This document shows, piece by piece, positions 8,370 through 25,542 of a stretch of 64,000 nucleotides of DNA (position 1 is the first letter of the stretch; each line of letters opens with the position of its first letter). The notes below the pieces were generated by a model. That model made no database searches. It saw only the letters and a program-made list of their open reading frames with translations, and had not been told where the DNA came from. Source of the stretch: Anaerohalosphaeraceae bacterium (GTDB lineage: Bacteria > Planctomycetota > Phycisphaerae > Sedimentisphaerales > Anaerohalosphaeraceae). Location: positions 16,438-80,437 of the forward strand of contig JBNRMN010000002.1 of NCBI GenBank assembly GCA_050309605.1. Reading direction: 5' to 3'. A program made the translations under genes and the position numbers.

Positions 8370-11258
8370 ATGATATTTCCGAGAACCGGCATTATTGCAT
8401 CCTTTTTTCTGATTTTTTCGATGGGTGCATTGGGGGATGTGCAATGGCTGCGTTATCGAACCAGTGAGGATGTGGGCCAGGAGGTGGGCGCCTCGGTGAA
8501 CCGGTATTATCGCAGTTTTGAGTCGCAGCGTCCGGAGCACGTGCGGTGTCCGGAATTCAAATCCGACAGTCCCTTGTTTATTAAATGGAACACCCCGATG
8601 GACGGGCAGGGTTTTCGGTGGATCGCGTTGGATCGTTCGACGCCGTATGGACAATATGATCTGTTGTATATCGATTCAAACGGCGACGGGCATCTGGATG
8701 ACGAGAAGCCGTATCAGGGGCGGCGAAGCGATCAGTATCGTATGGCCTTTCATCCGTTTCCTGTCTATCTGACCGGCGAGGACGGGCCGATTACCTATCA
8801 TCTGGCGTGCCAATTCTACAGCTATGATGAGCGCAGTCGATATTTGATGATGTCTTCGGGCGGTTATTATGAAGGGACGGTGTTGATCGGCGGCGAACCG
8901 GTTGGGTGTGTTCTGGTGGATACCAACGGCAACGGGACGTTTGACGATACGGCTGAGGACTTTAACGCCGACCGGATTTTGCTGGGTGAAGGACAAAATC
9001 GGCGGGAGTATTTTGTGGGTCGCTATCTGGATTATGAAGGGACGTTGTATCGGCTTCAGATTGCACGCGACGGGGCGTTTGTGTCTCTTGCGGCTGCGCC
9101 CGACGTATCGTTTGGGGTCGTGCAGGTTCCCGAAGGTTTGACGAAATTCTCGGCCGGGGGTGTTAATGGAATGTATCACATGTCGCCGGAAAACGGGCAC
9201 GTGCGCCTGCCGGAAGGGACGTATCGGGTGTATCAATGGGAGTTGGTTCGTCAGGACAAGGGGCAGGACTGGACCTTGCGGGGAAGCAATTTTCCGCGTC
9301 AGCAGAGTTTTACGGTCAGCGCCGATACGCCGGCGAGGGTGGCTGTCGGCGAGCCGGTATTTTCGCGGCTGTCGGTTTCCGAACGACAGGGAATCTATTC
9401 GATCAATCAGGAACTTCGGGGCAAGATGAACGAGCAGGTCAGTGTGCTGCGAAACGGTCGGCAGCCGCCGGCGCCGAAGGTGCATATTCGCAGCCAAACG
9501 GGCGCGTATGACCGGACGTTTTCGCTGGAGTATGGGTGAGGCGGTACCTGTTCGCTCTCGTGGCGAGAGCCGAGGAATATTGAGCGTCCGTATGTTATAA
9601 CGCCGCTGGTCGAGGGGCCGTTTGATATACGGCAGATGCGCTATGTTTTTAAGCCGCTGCATCGTTCGGTACCGGTCGTCGGGCCGTGGATTGCCGAGGT
9701 TGCCGCCGATGAGGCGCTGCGCGTGGTGGTTGACGGTACGGGGCTGGTTGACCGTAACGGCGACCGTTTGCCGGAGCATTTGACGCAAACCGAGACGCAG
9801 TGGATTGTATCGCAAGAGGAGGTGGGAGAAGGGCTTGTCTTTGATTTCGGCCAAGCGGTCGAGTTGGAAACGCTTCAAATCTGGAATTACAATGAGCCGG
9901 GCTATACATCGCGCGGCGTCGCGCAGGCGGATGTATCGGTCTGGACGTCTGAAGGCGACTGGAAGACGGTTTTGCGCGGCGCGTCGCTGCAAGAAGCCGA
10001 AGGGACAGACCAGTATGATGAGCCGACCCTGCTGAGGCTTGTCCCGACGCGGGCCGAGAAGGTGCGGCTGAGCAATCTTAAGCCGTTTGCCGATGAGGGG
10101 TTTGTCGGTTTGTCGGCGATCCGGTTTTATGAGAAGGCCACGTTGGCGGCCTGCAATCCGCAGCCGCCGGGAGGGGCATCGCTGCCGTTCAGTTCTCAGG
10201 CGACGTTGTTCTGGACGCCGGGTAAAGAGGCGGCTGCGTATGATGTGTACGCCGGAATCGACGGTCAAGAGCCGGCGTTTTTGGGTCGCATTGCGGAATC
10301 TCAGGTCAAACTGGTCGGGCTGGTCGGCGAACGAACATATCGGTGGCGCATTGATGCGGTACAAACGAATGGTACCGTTACGCAAGGGCCGCTGTGGTCG
10401 TTTTCGGTTGAGCCGGGCCGCTGTGTGGCGCATTGGCCGTTTGATGAACACGAAGGCCAAACGGCTGCCGATTCGCTCGGTCAGGCGGCCGGTGTGTTGA
10501 GAGGTGAACCGGCGTGGCTGATTGACGGCGGACGGATTGACGGGGCCATCGAGCTGGACGGTCAGCGTGATTTTGTCGAAACGCCGGCGCTGCATTTGAA
10601 CACTGATACGCTGACGATGACTGTCTGGCTGCGGGCTGATCCGCCGCCGAATCAACTGACCGGCGTGATGTTCTGCCGCACGCCTTCGACGGTGGCGGGA
10701 ATTCACTTGAGCGGTACGAATCTGCGGTATCACTGGAATGATCTTCCGGAAAGTTATAATTGGGACAGCGGACTGAGTCTTCCGACGGATGGCAGGTGGG
10801 TGTTTGCCGCCCTGACGGTTACGCCGGAGTCGGCCAGGCTGTACCTGCATCATGACGGTGAGCTGAAGACAGCGGAAAATCGTCTCGTTCATTCCGTTCA
10901 GCCCTTTGACGGGCCGTTGACATTGGGATGTGACGGCGGGATCAATGACCGCAATTTCAAAGGTCGTATGGATGATGCGCGGGTGTATAATTATGCGCTG
11001 ACTGCTGAACAGATTCTTGCACTGGCCGAGGGACGTGAGCCGGCGGATTACGCTTCAGATGCGGCGCCGTCGCTGGCGCTGGCCGGTGCGGAATTGATCC
11101 AGCGCGACGCGGATTTGAAGGCGATCGCCGAGGCTCGGCAGCGCGAGCGACAAGCGGCTCCGCCGGCCGAGGTGCGCCGACGCAATATCCTGCCGGTGCT
11201 GGTGATTGTGGCGTTGATTGCCGCCGCGGCGGTGGTCTTGGGCAGGAAGTCCGCATAA
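8370..11258 (+). CDS. Putative exported selenoprotein (962 aa, Sec390; UxxxC motif, discoidin-like and LamG domains, C-terminal TM)
   Basis: ORFs 8370-9539 and 9636-11258 are in the same frame, separated only by TGA at 9537-9539. Read-through gives EYG-U-GGTCSLSWREP, and a SECIS-like hairpin follows. Signal peptide; FKGRMDDARVYNYALT LamG motif. Confidence 0.8.
9554..9570 (+). promoter_or_regulatory. Candidate bacterial SECIS hairpin
   Basis: GCTCTCG-TGG-CGAGAGC, perfect 7-bp stem; loop at +22..+24 after the TGA. Confidence 0.8.
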
Positions 11259-11382: not shown

Positions 11383-13821
11383 ATGCGTCAAGTCATAAGC
11401 AGAAACGGGTGGACGTGGGTTATGGTTGTGTCGGCGGTACTCGGTGCGGCTGAGGCGAAAACGCTCAAAGGCACGGTCACCGGTCCTGACGGCGCACCGG
11501 TGGACGGCGCGGCGGTGAGTGTCTATGCGGCCCAGCTTAAGATTGAATCGCTTGCTTTTGAGGTTCAGCCGGTCGGTCAGACGACGACGTGTTCGTCGGG
11601 ACTGTTTTCGGTGGAGACGGATGTTCAGATGCTGTCCAGCGAGGGAGGCTGGCTGTTTTTTGCGGAAAAGCCGGGCCTGTCAATCGGTTTTTCTTTGCTG
11701 CAAGACTTCTCGGAGGACAGCACGTCGCTTCAACTGACCGCGCCGCAGACATTGGCCGGACGGATTGAGGATATTCACGGTAATGCGGTTGCCGGGGCCG
11801 GGGTGCGTCTGCTGGTTTTATCGGTTCCGGGTGAGCGTGAGTGCTATACGCTGGGGCTTGAGCCGATCCCGTTTTTTGCTGCGGAAACGGATGCGCAGGG
11901 GCGATTTGAATTCGCGAATCTGCCGGAAAACTGTACGGCTGAACTCTTGGCCAAAAAGGCGGGACTGGCGACCTTTCATACGCTGACGTCCAACATCAAT
12001 CCGCAAACGGGGCTGAGTTTTTCGGTCGGGCAGGAAGATATTGTCCTGACCTTATCCGAGGCGTGTCGAATCAGCGGTATAGTGACCGACCAGGACAATC
12101 AGCCGGTGGGTCATGTGCAGATTGTGGCGATTGAAGCGGACCATCCGCAGATCGGGATTTTTACCCGGAATCTAACACGCGCCGAGGCCGACGGGACATT
12201 CAGCTTCGGCGGCCTGTCGGCCGGGTCATATCGACTCAGTGTGATTGATGCGGACTGGATGTCCGAGCCGGTTACCGTGGAGGTCAAGACGGAGGTGGGT
12301 GTGCCGCTGAAGGTCGTCAAGGGCAGCCTGCTGACAGTGACGGTGGTGGACGGCGTTTCCAATCAGCCGGTTGGATCGGCTCAAGTCAATGTGAGTCCGC
12401 AGGATGAACGCAGCAGTTTCTCGTTCGGCAGGGGCACGACCGATCCGGAGGGCAAAGTGCAAAGTCGCGTTTTGCCGGGGACGTATAATGTGTACGTCAG
12501 TGCGCCCGGATATCGCAGCAGCCGCAGTGTCGCGGCGGTCGTGGAAGACGGCAAGACCAATGAGATCACGATTATGCTGGGCGCAACGGCCCGCATTGCC
12601 GGAACGGTTACCGATTCCGACGGGCGGCCCGTTGCAGGGGCACAAGTCTTTGTGCTCCCCTTTTCGGGTAATGTGCGGGACGCCATACAGACAACCGACG
12701 AAAAGGGGCACTTTACCCTTGGGTGGGATCCGGAGCAGATCAGTTGGGTACAGGGTGAATTCTATCTTGCCGCGATTGACAAAAGCAGCAACCGTGCGGT
12801 GATTGAGCCGATTGACGCGGACACCACGGACATCCAGCTTACCCTTCAGCCCGGTCTGACGATCACCGGCAAAGTGACCGGCCCGGACGGCGAATCTCTG
12901 GCCGGGGCGGGGGTGAATGTGCAGTTTCGCGGCTCAAACTGGTCTTCGACGCTTCAGGGATACACCGCCCAAACCGACCGGGACGGGATGTATCGTATTG
13001 CCGCCATACCGCCGCAGCAGCGGTATTACTTATTCATCAGTGGGCCGACCGGTTATGGCACCGGGTCGGTTAATCTGGAGTTACCGACGGACGGCGATGT
13101 GGTTACCGCATCCGATACGGTGCTGAAATTGGCCAATCTGTCGGTATCCGGCAAGGTGGTTGATGAGGACGGCAATCCGCTGGAGGGGGTGAATCTGCAT
13201 TGTTACGGCTCCGGCCAGCCCAGCGCCCAGGCGCGAACCGGCACGGATGGGACATTTGTGTTTGATGCGGTCTGCCAAGGCGATCTGTCCATTCAGGCCA
13301 ATTATCAAAAAGACGGCGAGTATATGTATTCCAATGTCCGAACCGAAGGCGGAGCGCAGGAGGTCACGATCGTCCTGGGCCCGCAAAGCTCCGGCGGCGG
13401 CTATGTGCCGCGACGGCCGGCCCCGCTGGTCGGCAAGCTGCTGCCGGATTTGTCGGGGTACGGCATTGAGCTTGAGAGGCAGGCCGGGCCGGTGCTGGTA
13501 TGCGTCTGGGACTGGCGGCAGCGGCCGAGCCGTTATATGGTGCGGCAACTGGCCGCGCGGGCCGGTGCGCTGGCCGAGCGGTCGGTACAGGTCGTGCTGC
13601 TCAATGGCGAATCGACGGAACGTGAGCCGCTCGATGCGTGGCTGGCTGATTTTGACATTCCGTTCGTCTGCGGCGTTATCGCCATCGACCCCGATAATTC
13701 TCGATTTAATCTCGGCGTCCAGGCGATGCCGTGGCTGATTTTAACCGATGGTCAGCGCAAGGTCATTGCTGAAGGGTTTGCGCTGTCCGAATTGACTGAT
13801 AAGCTGGGCGGACTGCAATAA
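11383..13821 (+). CDS. Exported protein with carboxypeptidase-regulatory-like repeats and a C-terminal thioredoxin-like fold
   Basis: Signal peptide; repeated G.V.D.DG.P..GA.V ... TD..G.F units; C-terminal LPDL..PVLVCVW..QRPS..AMPWLILTD. Confidence 0.8.
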   Translation: MRQVISRNGWTWVMVVSAVLGAAEAKTLKGTVTGPDGAPVDGAAVSVYAAQLKIESLAFEVQPVGQTTTCSSGLFSVETDVQMLSSEGGWLFFAEKPGLSIGFSLLQDFSEDSTSLQLTAPQTLAGRIEDIHGNAVAGAGVRLLVLSVPGERECYTLGLEPIPFFAAETDAQGRFEFANLPENCTAELLAKKAGLATFHTLTSNINPQTGLSFSVGQEDIVLTLSEACRISGIVTDQDNQPVGHVQIVAIEADHPQIGIFTRNLTRAEADGTFSFGGLSAGSYRLSVIDADWMSEPVTVEVKTEVGVPLKVVKGSLLTVTVVDGVSNQPVGSAQVNVSPQDERSSFSFGRGTTDPEGKVQSRVLPGTYNVYVSAPGYRSSRSVAAVVEDGKTNEITIMLGATARIAGTVTDSDGRPVAGAQVFVLPFSGNVRDAIQTTDEKGHFTLGWDPEQISWVQGEFYLAAIDKSSNRAVIEPIDADTTDIQLTLQPGLTITGKVTGPDGESLAGAGVNVQFRGSNWSSTLQGYTAQTDRDGMYRIAAIPPQQRYYLFISGPTGYGTGSVNLELPTDGDVVTASDTVLKLANLSVSGKVVDEDGNPLEGVNLHCYGSGQPSAQARTGTDGTFVFDAVCQGDLSIQANYQKDGEYMYSNVRTEGGAQEVTIVLGPQSSGGGYVPRRPAPLVGKLLPDLSGYGIELERQAGPVLVCVWDWRQRPSRYMVRQLAARAGALAERSVQVVLLNGESTEREPLDAWLADFDIPFVCGVIAIDPDNSRFNLGVQAMPWLILTDGQRKVIAEGFALSELTDKLGGLQ

Positions 13822-13883: not shown

Positions 13884-15038
13884 ATGAGACAATGGGTTGT
13901 TTTATGGGTCGCTTTCGCGGCGGCCGGGGCGATGGCGCTGACGGTTTCGGAGCAGACGCTTGATCTGTTTGGTACGTCCGAGCCGGAGGATCCGAATGCC
14001 GTGGTTCTCGCTGATCCGCCCTACACCGTCAAGGTGTCGCGCACGGGCAAAGTGCTGAATGTGGCGATTGAGACCGCGTCGCGTGAGCAGGCGGAATTGC
14101 TGTTCGGCGCGCATTATGAACAGTCGCCGAGACTGTCGATTTATAAGGGCGATTTGCTGCTGGCATCGGGGCAGTTCGCCTTTGGGTGAGGCGGCGTCTG
14201 TGCGTACTCGTGGCGAGTACCGATGTATGCTTATGGCACATTCAGAATCGAGACGGAAGTGCCGACCGGCGAAGGCGAACCGATCCGCGTCGAGCCGACG
14301 ACATATTATTTCAATCCGCTGTATCATGCGTCGGGGTTTGTCTATTTCGTTCCGGTTGCGGCGGCGTTTTTGTTCCTGAAAGAAAACCGGCGACCGAAGG
14401 CGTTTTTGATTCTGGCGCCAATGCTGCTGGTGATGGGGATGTGGAGAGGGTTTTCCGGAGTGATGCATTTTCCTGAAGAGGCGGTCAGCATGTTAAATTC
14501 AGTGGTTATGGCCTTGCTGGCGGGCCTTTCCGTTGTCTGGCTTCTGGGTGAGCGGATCGGCCATCGCCATCGGTTGGCAACGACTTTTCTGGCGGGCGGT
14601 ATTATGCTGGGGTGCTGTGCCCTGATGCTGGTAGAAATCTTTTCCTCGGACTATGTGTTTCAAATCGCATTTTTCGGTGTGATCAGTGCGGCGGTTATCC
14701 TGTCGGGCTTACTTGTCGGCGGTTTCCTGAGCCGGAAGCGATTTGGCCCGGTGCGTTTTTTGCTATGGTTCGGTGTGGGCATTTTATCGGCGACTTTTGT
14801 GCTGTTTTTTGTTTATTATGCGATTTTGACATTTTCCTATTTCAGTGCAGATTTGTTCTGGATGTTGTTGGGCGTGATGCTGACTTATGCCGCAATCTAT
14901 TGGGTAGGCGTCTTGCCGTTTCTGGTGCTGTTTTTCGTCAATGACTTTTGGCGGCAGCGGTTTACGGCGGTCATGGGATTGGGCACTGTAGCCGTATCCG
15001 AGACGGAAGCTCACGAGGCGTTTACGTCTGACTTCTGA
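13884..15038 (+). CDS. Putative membrane selenoprotein (384 aa, Sec102; exported UxxxC domain plus multi-TM domain)
   Basis: ORFs 13884-14189 and 14223-15038 are in frame, separated only by TGA at 14187-14189. Read-through gives FAFG-U-GGVCAYSWRVP, and a SECIS-like hairpin follows. Confidence 0.8.
14204..14220 (+). promoter_or_regulatory. Candidate bacterial SECIS hairpin
   Basis: GTACTCG-TGG-CGAGTAC, perfect 7-bp stem; loop at +22..+24 after the TGA. Confidence 0.8.
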
Positions 15039-15886
15039 TCGCCCAGTTCCGTCGGTTCGTCCAGCAGGGTGGCCGGCTTCAGTGCGCCGGGGCCGCATTT
15101 TGTGCATTCCAGACAGCGGATGCAGTGGTCGGCGTTGGGGGTCTTATCGGGCTGGACGCCGTAGCGGCACAGGGTTCGACAGCGGCCGCATTGGGTGCAT
15201 TGGTGTTCTTCCAGGTTCAGTGTAAACAGAGAAAACCGATTGAAAAAGCCGAAAATCGCACCCAGCGGGCACAGAATTCGACACCACGGGCGGATGGTAA
15301 AAAAGATGGCGGCGACAAAGACGACGATGATGGTGATTTTGAGGGTGTTGGGCCAGGGGATTACGTCGCCGGCGACGGCGGCGGAAACCACATCGGGCAG
15401 GGCCTTTTCCAGCCCGCCGGCCGGGCAGATACGGCAGATAAACAGCGGGTGGCCTTCGCCGAAAAAGTAGGGGACGGCCAGGACTGTCCCGATCAGTACG
15501 ACATAGCGAAAATGCCCCATCCAGCGGGGGATTTTGAAACGCGGCGCGGGGACCTTGGCCGCGACATCCTGAAGCAGGCCGAACGGACACATCCAGCCGC
15601 ACACCAGCGAGCCGAGCATCACGCCGAACGCGATCAGCAGTCCCACGGCAAAATACGGAAACAGGTGCAGCGCACTGAATTGGGCAATGACGCCGATGGG
15701 GCAGCCGAACAAGGCCAGCGGACAGGCATAGCAATGGAACACCGGTCCGCACACGGTGTGCATCCGCAACCCGAACGGATCGAGCCAGACCAGCAAAAAA
15801 CCCGTCTGTACCCACAGCCGATGCGGCAGGAGTTTTTTGAAAAACCGCGACAGCGGCGATGACGATGAATTGACCGTGGACACCAC
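15011..15886 (-). CDS. Membrane 4Fe-4S binding protein (NapH/YccM-like polyferredoxin)
   Basis: CGWMCPFG and WCRILCPLG CxxxCP motifs; CTQCGRCRTLC and CIRCLECTKC ferredoxin motifs; TM helices; AAGGAGG RBS (start may be the second GTG, 15883). Confidence 0.9.
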   Translation of the reverse strand: MVSTVNSSSSPLSRFFKKLLPHRLWVQTGFLLVWLDPFGLRMHTVCGPVFHCYACPLALFGCPIGVIAQFSALHLFPYFAVGLLIAFGVMLGSLVCGWMCPFGLLQDVAAKVPAPRFKIPRWMGHFRYVVLIGTVLAVPYFFGEGHPLFICRICPAGGLEKALPDVVSAAVAGDVIPWPNTLKITIIVVFVAAIFFTIRPWCRILCPLGAIFGFFNRFSLFTLNLEEHQCTQCGRCRTLCRYGVQPDKTPNADHCIRCLECTKCGPGALKPATLLDEPTELGDQKSDVNAS

Positions 15887-15890
15887 AGCC
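15872..15890 (-). promoter_or_regulatory. Candidate bacterial SECIS hairpin overlapping the start of the next gene
   Basis: GGCTGTGG-TGT-CCACGGTC, 8-bp stem with two G-U pairs; loop at +22..+24 after the TGA. Confidence 0.65.
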
Positions 15891-15894
15891 TCCT

Positions 15895-16140
15895 TTAACT
15901 GCCTCAGGTCGGGCAGGCTTCGGGGGGCTTGCCCGTGTAGGTTAACTGCAATCGACCGTCGTCGGTACGCTCCAGCCCGCCGATGCTGACTTCCTTCATC
16001 AGCCGCGTTTCGGGCGTGGCCAACCCTTTGTCGTTGTGTTCCGAAAAGACCGGCTGCGTGTGAAACTTCAGCCCGAAGGCCATCAGGCCGGCGCCGATAA
16101 ACAGCAGCACAAATACGATTTTGATCTTGAAGGACTCCAT
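15895..16140 (-). CDS. Small membrane-anchored protein with a putative C-terminal CxxU motif (81 aa with read-through)
   Basis: N-terminal TM; ends TGC CCG ACC TGA GGC AGT TAA = C-P-T-U-G-S-stop. Confidence 0.7.
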
Positions 16141-16233
16141 AATATTTACGCTATCATAGCACACCGGAATGTATTTGTAAACAGCGTTTGGCGTACAAAA
16201 TGATTGGCGGCCAGTCAGGATCGGCAGCCAAAT

Positions 16234-16266
16234 AAAAACGCCCGCGGACTTTGTCAGCGGGCGTTT
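16234..16266 (-). terminator. Intrinsic terminator after xerC
   Basis: Minus strand AAACGCCCGC..GCGGGCGTTTTT. Confidence 0.75.
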
Positions 16267-16286
16267 GAGGCTGTATCTAAAAAGAC

Positions 16287-17297
16287 TTATGTTGTCGGTT
16301 TGATTTCCAGCGGATGGGCGTTTTGATATTGTTCCTGCATTCGACTGGTGGTGATATGCGTATAAATCTGGGTTGTCGATAACGATTGGTGTCCCAGCAG
16401 TTCCTGAACGCTTCGCAGGTCGGCACCGTTGTTGAGCATATGGGTCGCGAAGCTGTGCCGCAGCGTGTGCGGGCTGATGTTCGGGTCCAGACCCGCCTCG
16501 ATGAGGTATTTGTCCATTTTTCGGCGGACGCTGCGGGCACTCATCCGTTTGCCGTGCTTGTTGGCAAACAGCACTTTACTGTCAAAGCCCGGATCATTGG
16601 CCAGACGGCGGCTGCGAAACTCCAGATAATGTTGAATGCTCTGCAGCGCTGTCAGACCAATCGGGCAAATCCGTTCTTTTTTGCCTTTGCCGCGGACGTG
16701 AATCACTTCGCCGAGGAAATCCACATCTTCCATATTCAGGGCCACCAGTTCGCTGACCCGCATCCCCGTGCTGTAGAGTACTTCCATCATCGCTCGGTCG
16801 CGGGCACCCAGCCATGTGGTGGCCGGCGGTGTGTTCAGCAGCCGCTGAACCTGCTCGTATTCAAGAAACTTGGGCAGTTTTTTATCTTGTTTGGGTGTTT
16901 TGATATTGGTGGCCGGATTGCTGGACACATAATTGCGCTTGACGAGAAATTTGTAAAAGCTGCGCACCGTGGCCAGTTTGCGTGCGGTGGTGGATTTGGA
17001 ATAGGCGTGGGAGTTCAATTCCGCCAGAAAACGGCGTATCGTATTGACGTCCGCAGCCTGCAGCAGGGTATCGATCTGGGTTTGTGCCTGGGTCTGTGTT
17101 TGTGTCGCGACCGAACCGTTCTCGGCGGCCCAGGGATTTTGTCCGTTGTCGTCGGGGCCGTGCGCGTCGGCGTGGGCGGCCAGAAAGGCGCTGTACTGCT
17201 CCAGGTCAGCCTCATAACACTTGGCGGTATGCTCGGAAAAATGTTTTTCAAATTTCAGATAATTGACAAAATCCTGGATAATCGCCGAGTTGTCCAT
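16287..17297 (-). CDS. xerC: Tyrosine recombinase XerC
   Basis: RD.A..E.LYSTGMRVSEL, GKGKKER, SPHTLRHSFATH.L..GADLR.VQELLGH.SLSTTQIYTH. Confidence 0.88.
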   Translation of the reverse strand: MDNSAIIQDFVNYLKFEKHFSEHTAKCYEADLEQYSAFLAAHADAHGPDDNGQNPWAAENGSVATQTQTQAQTQIDTLLQAADVNTIRRFLAELNSHAYSKSTTARKLATVRSFYKFLVKRNYVSSNPATNIKTPKQDKKLPKFLEYEQVQRLLNTPPATTWLGARDRAMMEVLYSTGMRVSELVALNMEDVDFLGEVIHVRGKGKKERICPIGLTALQSIQHYLEFRSRRLANDPGFDSKVLFANKHGKRMSARSVRRKMDKYLIEAGLDPNISPHTLRHSFATHMLNNGADLRSVQELLGHQSLSTTQIYTHITTSRMQEQYQNAHPLEIKPTT

Positions 17298-23434: not shown

Positions 23435-23632
23435 ATGGCAAAAAACGTAAATCTTCGTGATCGGGACGTAATGGCCTTAATCAATGCCAGGGCAGAGGCC
23501 GAAGGGCGGACGGCCCAAAATGCCGCCAGTCAGACGATTCGCGAGGCGCTTATGCCGATTTACGGCCCGAAACGTCGTTCATTCAAACAGCGAATCATTG
23601 AAAAGTCAAACGGAAATGGCTCAATGGATTGA
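23435..23632 (+). CDS. Small DNA-binding protein (Arc/RHH-like)
   Basis: NVNLR...ALI.ARA.AEGRT.......IREAL pattern; occupies the Ner/Cro position. Confidence 0.6.
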   Translation: MAKNVNLRDRDVMALINARAEAEGRTAQNAASQTIREALMPIYGPKRRSFKQRIIEKSNGNGSMD

Positions 23633-25542
23633 CATTTCGACAGCCGCTGCGCGGCTGGGGGTTACGGAGCGGGCTGTCCGTAAGCGTTGTCTGGTCGGTG
23701 ATTTGCCCGGCGCTGAGAAGCGTAATGGGATCTGGCGGATACCTGTAACCGCCGACGCGCGGCTGGCAGGGCGTCCTGCCGTCGACGTGCGGGTTGATGC
23801 TGATGACCTGGCAAGAATTCCAAAACCAAAGTTAGACGAGGCGATTCGGCGGGCAGGCGTTGTCGCGGCTTTTGAGAGGTTCTCGCGTGAACACGTCCGG
23901 GCCGGCGGGCTGCGAACTGAGGCCTTCGAAATATTCGCGTATCAAAATAATCTGGCTGTCGGCACGCTGCGGCGATGGGTTTCACGGCACAAGCAACACG
24001 GGGTTTTGGGCCTGGTGGATTGTCGCGGCGGGTCGCGAAATAGCGAGACTATCAGTCCGGAGGCCTGGGAGTTTTTCAAGAGTCTCTATCTCGATCCGCG
24101 CCAGCCGTCAATCCGGCAGTGCCTGCGGATGACCGTTCACCATAATAAGAGGGAGAAGTTGGGCTGGACAATACCATCGTACGGCGCGCTTTGCCGATAC
24201 ATAGACAAGTATTTGCCCTTGCCGGTTCGGGTGCTGCATCGTGAGGGGCAGGCCGCCTATGAGGCCAAGTGCGCGCCTTATATTCAAGTCGATCTTTCGG
24301 AAGTCGAGCCGGGCAGCGTCTGGGTCGGCGATCACCACCAGTTTAATGTGTTGATTCAACACATGGGCAAATGGGTGCGGCCCTGGCTGACGGCCTGGAT
24401 GGATGCGCGCAGCCGCGCGCTGGTGGGCTGGCAGGTCTGTTTGCAGCCGAACCAGACGACGATCCTGACGTCGTTTCGGGATGCGGCGAAAAAATATGGC
24501 CCACCGGATGGGGTTAAGATCGATAATGGCCGCGACTACGATGCACGATTGTTTACCGGCACGACCAAAAAACGCCGGAAGGCCCTGAGTAAGGGTTATC
24601 TTGACGAAGATACGGTGTCCGGCCTCTACGGTCTTTTGGGTGTCGAAGTTTCTTTTGCCATTCCTTACCATCCTCAAAGCAAGTCCATCGAACGGTTCTT
24701 TGATACCGTCGATCAACAGTTTTGCAAGTTTGTTCCGACGTATTGCGGCAAAGACACCAAGCGGAAGCCGGAAGCGCTTAATGATTATCTCAAGTCGTCG
24801 TCGGCGGTTGAGGCGGCTTATACGCTTGAGACCTTCTCGAAGGCCTTTGCCGATTACGCGGCTGTTTATAATACCCGGCCGCACTCATCGCTGGCCGGCC
24901 AGACGCCGCTGGAAGTGCTCGAATCGCGCGAGTCGAAGCGCGTCGTTTTGGATGATGTGCTGGATCTGTTGTGCCGTGTCTGGATAGACGCAAAAGTCAC
25001 CAAGAACGGTGTACGCATAAATGGACTTTATTTTGGGCAATACGACCCCCCACATCATGGCGCTGCAAGGCAAAGCTGTGCGTGTTAGCTACGATCCGAA
25101 CGACGCGGGGGTCATTTTCATTTACAACGAAGATTGGAAGTTTGTTGCGCGGGCCGAGAGCAATCGGCTGGTCGCCTACGGGCAGCCCGGGGTCAGCGAC
25201 GGCTCTGTCCGTGCGGCCATGCGGCAAAAGGCCCGCGCGGCAAAACAGCTTCGTCAGCAGCGGGACGCGGCGCGTACTCGCGCGATGGACGTGGCGGCCC
25301 TGGCGATCGAGGCCCAGGCCGCCGAGACCCGGCCGGCGCCGGCGGCCAAGCCGCCGAGGATTCGGGCGGTCAAAACCGTTTTGGACGGTCAGCTCGACGC
25401 GCATAAAGTGGCTGCTGGGCCGTCGCCGTCGCGAGAGTCGTTCTGTCTGGAGTGGGACATCGAACCCAAAGGGCTAAAACCGCCGCCTGTTATTGATCTG
25501 GGGCTGGACGACGATTTCTGGGAGGATGCCGATGTTGGGTGA
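23616..25542 (+). pseudogene. MuA-like DDE transposase split by a frameshift in a C6 run (25046-25051)
   Basis: N-terminal HTH; WVGDH, D..SR..VGW, IDNGRDY, K.IERFF core. The C-terminal G..V.VSYDPND...I.I domain continues in another frame. Confidence 0.85.

Follow-up and report, generated by a model that had tools for sequence, protein, structure and literature searches.

A candidate C-terminal selenocysteine codon followed by a SECIS-like hairpin that encloses the start codons of a polyferredoxin gene in an Anaerohalosphaeraceae bacterium

In the 64,000-nucleotide stretch analyzed here (the window), which derives from an Anaerohalosphaeraceae bacterium, a small open reading frame (ORF) on the minus strand runs into a TGA codon that is followed two codons later by a second in-frame stop, and a hairpin just beyond encloses the start codons of the next gene, which encodes a NapH/MauN-like membrane polyferredoxin. 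This arrangement raises the question of whether the TGA terminates the small protein or encodes selenocysteine (Sec, U), and whether the hairpin serves as a Sec insertion sequence (SECIS), as a control element of the downstream gene, or as both. By direct reading, the small ORF extends from ATG 16140 over 78 codons up to ...E-A-C-P-T (...TYTGKPPEACPT), and the TGA at 15906–15904 is followed by GGC AGT (G-S, 15903–15898) and TAA (15897–15895); a first-pass annotation had described a small transmembrane protein ending in C-P-T-TGA-G-S-TAA, and every element of that description is present. On the evidence of sequence comparisons, we consider it very probable that the UGA is decoded as Sec with the hairpin at 15890–15872 as the SECIS, and highly likely that the small gene (15895..16140, minus strand) represents a new family of 'U-x-x-stop' selenoproteins that appears to be obligate. 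The predicted product has 81 residues, with an N-terminal transmembrane helix, a small beta/alpha domain and a flexible tail ...TYTGKPPEACPT-U-GS, in which the TGA (15904..15906) would specify residue 79. The comparisons establish a conserved UGA, a short read-through frame, a covarying hairpin, the presence of Sec machinery and a gene linkage.

Relatives of the small gene were collected in three ways. DNA scans of public contigs gave 26 loci, of which one (L010) was left out as a 19-residue false match, leaving 25 true relatives; seven genomes from a 401-genome sample of the phylum and seven more divergent loci reached via the partner gene brought the total to 39 loci, comprising 32 distinct sequences with the window's own included. 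TGA was the first stop of any kind in all 25 contig-scan relatives, followed by two codons and a second stop. The seven phylum-sample genomes, which hold more distant members, had an identical layout (TGA first, short extension, second stop), and the seven divergent small ORFs ended in C-F-T-U-RE/RD, C-S-T-U-GSK/STP or S-F-[TA]-U-S[VT]. Altogether, the first stop was TGA in 39 of 39 loci and in 32 of 32 distinct sequences, and never TAA or TAG; the tally over the 32 distinct sequences was pre-selected on TGA, and the unbiased read-outs are the contig scans and the phylum-sample and partner-gene loci. The comparison of CPTC with CPT-TGA endings that the first-pass annotation had proposed therefore came out uniformly for TGA.

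The TGA is kept down to approximately 36% identity, including AT-rich lineages in which TAA is the second stop, and this invariance argues that it is decoded rather than used as an ordinary stop. The same conclusion is suggested by the second in-frame stop, which is held exactly two codons downstream in 29 of the 32 sequences and three codons downstream in the other 3; a plain terminator would not select for such a stop. The identity of this second stop varies as that of ordinary stops does (TAA 22, TGA 6, TAG 4; n = 32), and in the alignment of relatives indels were seen beyond it, never between the TGA and it. The extension past the TGA is too short for a substitution-rate test. In one subfamily, Ser replaces Cys (S-F-T-U), which indicates that Sec, and not Cys, would be the invariant residue of the motif. 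An assembly error at the TGA can also be dismissed, because the same 401 bases are identical in contigs of three other studies and one variant contig retains the TGA.

Database proteins of this family appear to be truncated at the same residue. All 19 close database homologues end in ...AC[PS]T. A profile search of 1.84 billion representatives returned 358 hits (clusters at 50% identity), 137 of them at E ≤ 1e-10, and among the best 149 of the 358, which were inspected, 144 end exactly at C-x-[TS], position 82 of the 85 in the profile; the exceptions were two proteins ending in ...ARPT, one in ...ARAA, one in ...PDLP, and one unrelated protein of 706 aa. When 141 members were compared with Pfam and NCBIfam, no consistent match and no family common to them was found, and the window protein matched no NCBIfam family at E ≤ 1, the UXX-star hidden Markov models NF041114 and NF041211 among those unmatched. 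A viral-contig scan aimed at the divergent 'LCPT' branch found nothing. An AlphaFold2 model of the small protein, built on a 141-sequence alignment (predicted local distance difference test score, pLDDT, 75.5), shows a transmembrane helix at residues 2–25 and a small beta/alpha unit, and the tail at residues 67–81, which carries C-P-T-U, has low pLDDT; the model matched no PDB fold at E ≤ 0.001.

The hairpin in the window (15872..15890, minus strand) consists of a perfect 8-bp stem and a UGU loop, with a 5' arm GGCUGUGG at 15890–15883, the loop at 15882–15880 and a 3' arm CCACGGUC at 15879–15872. The loop is located at +22..+24, counted after the A of the TGA, and the hairpin lies past the true stop codon. 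The Shine-Dalgarno (SD) sequence of the downstream gene, AAAGGAGG (15889..15896, minus strand, by direct reading), contributes its last two G as the first two hairpin bases, and an AAGGAG-type sequence occurs at the same place in most relatives. These two G and the two possible start codons, GTG 15886–15884 and GTG 15883–15881, fall without exception within the 5' arm or at the border of the loop. Direct reading thus confirmed the hairpin of the first-pass annotation, with its overlap of the 3' end of the ribosome-binding site (RBS) and of both GTG codons and with its loop offset. The hairpin alone has an energy of –9.7 kcal/mol, and an Rfam scan gave sub-threshold noise only. A SECIS stem starts just outside the mRNA channel of the ribosome, and the window stem would do the same. 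The window hairpin has the attributes described for bacterial SECIS elements, namely a stem-loop directly 3' of the UGA and a small apical loop with G (PMC1088965), and it also shows the structural arrangement of the selAB type, as a SECIS-like hairpin that overlaps the SD by 2 nt and contains both GTG codons.

Genome-wide, hairpins of this kind were no commoner after TGA than after control trinucleotides (21 versus 16–25 per 10^4), so the significance of the element lies in its conservation among relatives, a single sequence being not beyond chance. We aligned the hairpin across 24 distinct sequences, corresponding to 192 base-pair cells, with one sequence (L042) offset by one column and the source of several unpaired cells. 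Pairing was found in 94.8% of the 192 cells, and five of the eight base pairs had changes on both sides. Compensatory cells numbered 19, compared with 5.4 in shuffles, and none of 500 shuffles reached the score; when the partner was slid by 1–3 columns as a control, pairing fell to 21–40%. G-U or U-G pairs occupied 17 cells, and their frequency indicates that what is constrained is the sense RNA rather than a palindrome in the DNA. In all 24 sequences the loop starts at +22..+24 and contains a G. The stability of the hairpin ranged from –4.2 to –11.5 kcal/mol, and it was part of the minimum free energy (MFE) structure in 20 of 24.

Outside this alignment, the divergent members have hairpins with loops at approximately +25 to +35. 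In two genomes (G163 and G102), the hairpin is kept at SECIS distance and the partner start lies more than 100 nt beyond, and in three others (G289, G361 and G244), the place of the SECIS is taken by a different, GC-rich hairpin whose loop is found at approximately +24 to +28. By these comparisons, the invariant is a hairpin at a fixed distance from the UGA. The check on hairpin conservation called for by the first-pass annotation accordingly gave conservation with covariation among relatives, and the conserved TGA and the covarying hairpin together lend strong support to its proposal of a Sec-encoding TGA within a C-terminal CxxU, followed by a SECIS-like hairpin.

The genome contains the machinery that Sec decoding would require. 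We found selB (324 bits), selA (551 bits) and selD (375 bits), with selA and selB adjoining and a tRNA-Sec gene beside selD. In the 401-genome sample, selA was present in 289 genomes and in 8 of 8 carriers of the small gene. Among 23 genomes of the same class, selA was present in 3 (this genome, G000, together with G238 and G206), and the small gene was present in exactly those 3; the four nearest Sec-negative relatives have no NapH-like orthologue, only polyferredoxin paralogues of 29–34% identity. The polyferredoxin lies directly downstream of the small gene in 32 of the 32 loci tested. A NapH-like family match (E ≤ 1e-25) was obtained in 48 of the 401 genomes, 46 of which have selA (hypergeometric test, 1.2e-5, relatives not being independent). 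On the same contig, the distance from the NapH-like gene to selA is 2.1–2.8 kb in seven genomes of six families (G289, G163, G102, G055, G208, G014 and G097) and 8.9 kb in G206. By six-frame translation, the gene directly upstream of a NapH-like homologue is selB in G055 and G376 and selD in G082, G057 and G107; the two that were scanned were confirmed by NCBIfam (G055, TIGR00475, a C-terminal stretch, E 1.7e-9; G082, TIGR00476, E 3.6e-94). These neighborhoods suggest that the polyferredoxin family has a link of its own to selenium metabolism, and the linkage to selA, selB and selD points to an unrecognized selenium-handling step.

The small family may be one reason why this genome retains the full Sec machinery, since no in-frame TGA was found in the four classical selenoprotein families that were checked (FdhA and Rdx unmatched; AhpC-TSA and CMD matched without internal TGA). 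In the genome (G000:C64:22338-23949), selD is part of an open frame of 575 codons in which a CMD (AhpD-like) domain is matched as well (23520–23735), and the tRNA-Sec follows at 23853–23949.

Several observations weigh against the interpretation of the UGA as a Sec codon with its SECIS. A Cys-containing homologue is the criterion demanded by most selenoprotein screens, and no Cys homologue was found among the best 149 of the 358 representatives, 0 of 149 covering profile positions 83–85. For the same reason, the suggestion of the first-pass annotation that the protein is a Sec analogue of a family with C-terminal CxxC is not supported as stated; its link to the CD1871A type produced no NCBIfam match of any kind, and the name was not found in the literature searched. 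The 66-nt fold of the window is itself unremarkable (z = –0.10), its MFE structure lacks the hairpin, and the best hairpin-containing structure has –16.1 kcal/mol versus an MFE of –16.2 kcal/mol. For a SECIS element, a loop of 3 nt is on the small side, and recognition by SelB is putative. The compared genomes are related, so that the co-occurrence statistics overstate independence, and the five NapH-like homologues beside selB or selD (L068/L070 in G055 and G376; L071, L072 and L074 in G107, G057 and G082) have no small ORF upstream. Lastly, the genome contains 46 hairpins with at least 7 bp, a G-C closing pair and a UG[GU] triloop, of which four follow a TGA at a distance of exactly 22 nt; these four coincide with the candidate Sec sites (for the second candidate family, see below), a match of hairpin type and offset that is post hoc and illustrative only.

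The mechanism that we infer covers SelB binding, the chemistry and topology of the protein, and a translational gate. While the UGA is in the ribosomal A site, SelB with Sec-tRNA(Sec) would bind the hairpin, whose stem begins 14 nt past the codon; Sec would then be inserted, followed by G and S, and termination would occur at the UAA. The small protein would work together with the polyferredoxin, and its Cys-Sec tail would most likely form a redox-active or carrier selenenylsulfide arm that exchanges electrons, selenium or metal with the polyferredoxin, a chemistry that is proposed on the grounds of the motif and the neighbor genes. A Cys/Sec pair on a flexible, extreme C-terminal tail is likewise found in the eukaryotic redox arms of thioredoxin reductase (G-C-U-G) and SelO (C-x-x-U-x-x), which are unrelated proteins with a eukaryotic SECIS in the 3' untranslated region (UTR).

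As for the gate, we judge the chances to be about even that the hairpin also controls translation of the partner; the coupling between selenium status and the partner gene that the first-pass annotation had suggested would be reasonable in mechanism and has a precedent in Escherichia coli selAB. A ribosome that reaches the UAA would unwind the 5' arm, and the GTG codons are located 8–11 nt past this stop, so that initiation or re-initiation of the partner would be licensed; a ribosome that terminates at the UGA would leave the hairpin, and hence the partner start, closed. The polyferredoxin might thus be made mainly upon successful Sec insertion, a proposition that could equally well turn out either way. 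If true, the hairpin would be a simple example of a single RNA element with roles in recoding and in the control of initiation. The partner start more than 100 nt past the hairpin in G163 and G102 does not fit such a gate, and neither do G289, G361 and G244, in which a separate start-codon hairpin is out of reach of a ribosome stopped at the second stop. The selAB precedent would predict repression of the partner.

The explanation that survives best beside a gate is that the hairpin is simply a SECIS and that its overlap with the start codons is a by-product of a compact operon, in which a C-terminal Sec pushes the SECIS into the next gene, without any coupling; we regard this as quite possible, if not as the explanation that we favor. 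It accounts well for the UGA-to-loop distance, held in 24 of 24 sequences, and for the two genomes whose hairpin contains no start codon, and the published cases of C-terminal Sec described in a preprint likewise have the SECIS ahead of the RBS of the next gene (bioRxiv 10.1101/2022.07.06.499078). However, G289, G361 and G244 still hold the start codon of the partner in a second, 7-bp hairpin despite their separate SECIS hairpin, which suggests that sequestration was selected, and the first residues of the partner, M-V-A-M-V, look dictated by the palindrome. In view of these cases, selection seems to act on start-codon enclosure, too. In the three loci concerned (L041 in G289, L063 in G361 and L065 in G244), the second hairpin is of the GGCCAUG-CGGGA-CAUGGCC type, is located directly behind the first and encloses the partner's ATG.

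It is far less probable, and in our judgment very unlikely, that the TGA is an ordinary stop, with the protein ending at ...C-P-T and the hairpin acting only in translational coupling or attenuation of the NapH-like gene. Control by start-codon hairpins is widespread, no stop trinucleotide is commoner than TGA in this GC-rich genome, and a Cys form aligning with the TGA was not found among the best 149 of 358 representatives. However, an ordinary stop would hardly remain TGA in all distinct sequences, AT-rich lineages with a TAA second stop included, with a further in-frame stop 2–3 codons on that is conserved without indels, in a gene pair that is limited to selA-positive genomes and linked to selA, selB and selD. 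Least credible of all is a role at the DNA level, in which a dimeric regulator would bind the inverted repeat as its operator or the repeat would be some other palindrome (a CCATGG-type site). Many copies are indeed perfect CCATGG-containing palindromes, and symmetric half-site changes would mimic covariation. However, pairing in the 17 G-U/U-G cells holds at the level of the sense RNA alone, and these cells disturb the symmetry of the DNA; in addition, the element is internal to an operon, where it separates a stop from a start codon and keeps a constant distance from the UGA, and divergent lineages have unrelated GC-rich hairpins at the same distance instead.

The reading of the UGA as a Sec codon can be compared with known systems. 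C-terminal Sec has been described in the 'UXX-star' families NF041114 and NF041211, a name given by NCBI curators, in KCU-star (NF033934) and in SaoC (NF040734) (PMC13188914, Table 1; bioRxiv 10.1101/2022.07.06.499078). As in the UXX-star and other C-terminal-Sec families, the predicted Sec is no more than 3 residues from the C-terminus, gene callers truncate the protein, and the SECIS lies past the true stop. Unlike these families, the proteins considered here have a C-x-T-U motif (S-F-T-U in one branch), a membrane anchor and an obligate NapH-like neighbor, and no sequence relationship connects the two groups. For SaoC, the proposed SECIS of a C-terminal Sec is located between the stop codon and the RBS of the next gene and has a stem of 7 bp and a GGU loop (bioRxiv 10.1101/2022.07.06.499078). 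The window hairpin resembles this element, as the preprint presents it, in its short stem and its 3-nt, G-containing loop, and differs in enclosing the start codon of the neighbor rather than preceding its RBS, and in that no Cys forms were found for our family. The layout of a C-terminal Sec with a SECIS past the stop is thus already known from these sources, and the C-x-T-U family is apparently new. In Table 1 of a 2026 review of prokaryotic selenoproteins, in which each family bears a Pfam, NCBIfam, TIGR, cd or PTHR identifier, no family corresponds (PMC13188914), and no earlier description of the small-protein family was found in the literature searched. Screens that rely on Cys/Sec pairs would not see the C-x-T-U family, with its 358 clusters and the same truncation residue in almost all of those inspected; the authors of deep-Sep state that their method may miss selenoproteins without Cys homologues (PMC12013277).

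The resemblance to bacterial SECIS elements of the Escherichia coli fdhF type (PMC1088965) extends to the position of the hairpin directly 3' of the UGA and to the small apical loop with G. In contrast to the fdhF type, the stem in the window's family is perfect, with 7–8 bp and without a bulged U, the triloop is N-G-N, and the window element is located in intergenic and next-gene sequence and not in its own coding region. In the 5' UTR of E. coli selAB, SelB bound to a SECIS-like hairpin 3 nt from the SD can control initiation (PMC13449736, citing Thanbichler and Bock 2002). The window hairpin, likewise, is within a few nt of the SD of a downstream gene, with putative recognition by SelB. According to the same account, the E. 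coli element does not serve Sec insertion and SelB represses, whereas both insertion and activation would be predicted here.

The partner gene (15011..15886, minus strand) encodes a NapH/MauN-like membrane polyferredoxin of 291 aa with four CxxCP/CxxxCP motifs and two ferredoxin-type 4-Cys motifs. Its score against PF12801 (Fer4_5) is 49.4 bits, compared with a cut-off of 22, and its score against TIGR02163 is 66.4 bits, below the cut-off of 213. Like NapH/MauN/NosR-type proteins (TIGR02163, PF12801), it carries CxxxCP motifs of the Fer4_5 kind where helices end, together with a C-terminal ferredoxin domain (2x[4Fe-4S]); the motifs conserved in the partner are two CxxxCP at helix ends, two additional ones of CxxCP type located in loops, and the two ferredoxin 4-Cys motifs. 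It differs from NapH/MauN in the position below the TIGR02163 cut-off, in the extra conserved CxxCP motifs in two loops and in its genomic association, which is with selA, selB and selD; the nearby ORFs that were read included none recognized as a nap, mau or nos gene. In two records of a close relative (L008 and L011), residue 32 of the NapH-like protein (alignment column W34; positions 1847–1849) is changed from the conserved Trp codon TGG to TAG, identically in both, and we read this TAG as a nonsense variant or an error.

On the plus strand of the window, the C-terminal domain (13207..13821) of an 834-aa, secreted-type protein with CarboxypepD_reg repeats has a thioredoxin fold of the ResA/CcmG/TlpA type. 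A Foldseek match to 4nmu_A was obtained (E 3.9e-7, probability 1.00), and the CxxC is replaced by an invariant Q-R-P-S; a PDB sequence search with this domain gave no match. Homologues of the Q-R-P-S domain occur in convergent orientation with the NapH-like gene at seven loci (L014, L020, L024, L027, L030, L031 and L032, of which L030 and L031 are twins), which represent six distinct lineages, all of them distant, and in the window the domain lies 1.2 kb further from the gene pair. Judging by the sequence of two N-termini, the short basic one of the small protein and the signal-like one of the 834-aa protein, the Cys-Sec tail and the Q-R-P-S domain may face the periplasm. We put forward, tentatively and as an unlikely reading, the idea that the small protein joins with the polyferredoxin in a membrane module that is dedicated to selenium and belongs to the Sec pathway, possibly for extracytoplasmic reduction of selenium or its hand-over to SelD on the Cys-Sec arm, which would perhaps dock on the Cys-less thioredoxin-fold domain, with the SECIS doubling as a gate that would restrict synthesis of the Fe-S partner to times of Sec-tRNA availability. 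If true, one hairpin would act as a feed-forward sensor of selenium status.

A promoter-like site (TTTACA-17 nt-TATGAT, TG-extended; 16153..16181, minus strand) is located 13 nt upstream of ATG 16140 and is the sole sigma-70-like match within 14900–16400, agreeing with the consensus at 10 of 12 positions, as a consensus match only. Its position implies a very short leader, of approximately 6 nt, and no SD precedes ATG 16140 (16140–16181, minus strand); the mRNA from which the small gene is translated may be nearly leaderless.

Matches to the small gene in two genomes of the phylum sample, G267 and G107, were set aside, the family motif being absent. In G107 (L071), a small ORF ending ...KKTLGE-TGA-P-TGA is located on the minus strand near the NapH-like gene and may be chance.

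A second candidate Sec family is present in the same genome, with the motif [YF]G-U-G-[GS]-x-C-x-x-S-W-R-x-P at positions 9537–9539 and 14187–14189 of the window (both plus strand) and at G000:C34:83344 (minus strand), the last approximately 400 nt upstream of selA. Ten database homologues of the gene at 14187 all consist of the C-terminal piece only, split at the same place, and a Cys form was not seen among them; because only split forms and no Cys form are available, this G-U-G-G-x-C family does not serve as a calibrator for the SECIS. Long open frames flank each TGA of the family, and the hairpin behind it is of the type (G)(U/C)ACUCG-UGG-CGAGU(A/G)C. The first-pass annotation had pointed to two other sites with the same loop offset, and this was borne out at TGA 9537 and TGA 14187, each of which is followed by a 7-bp stem with a UGG loop at +22.

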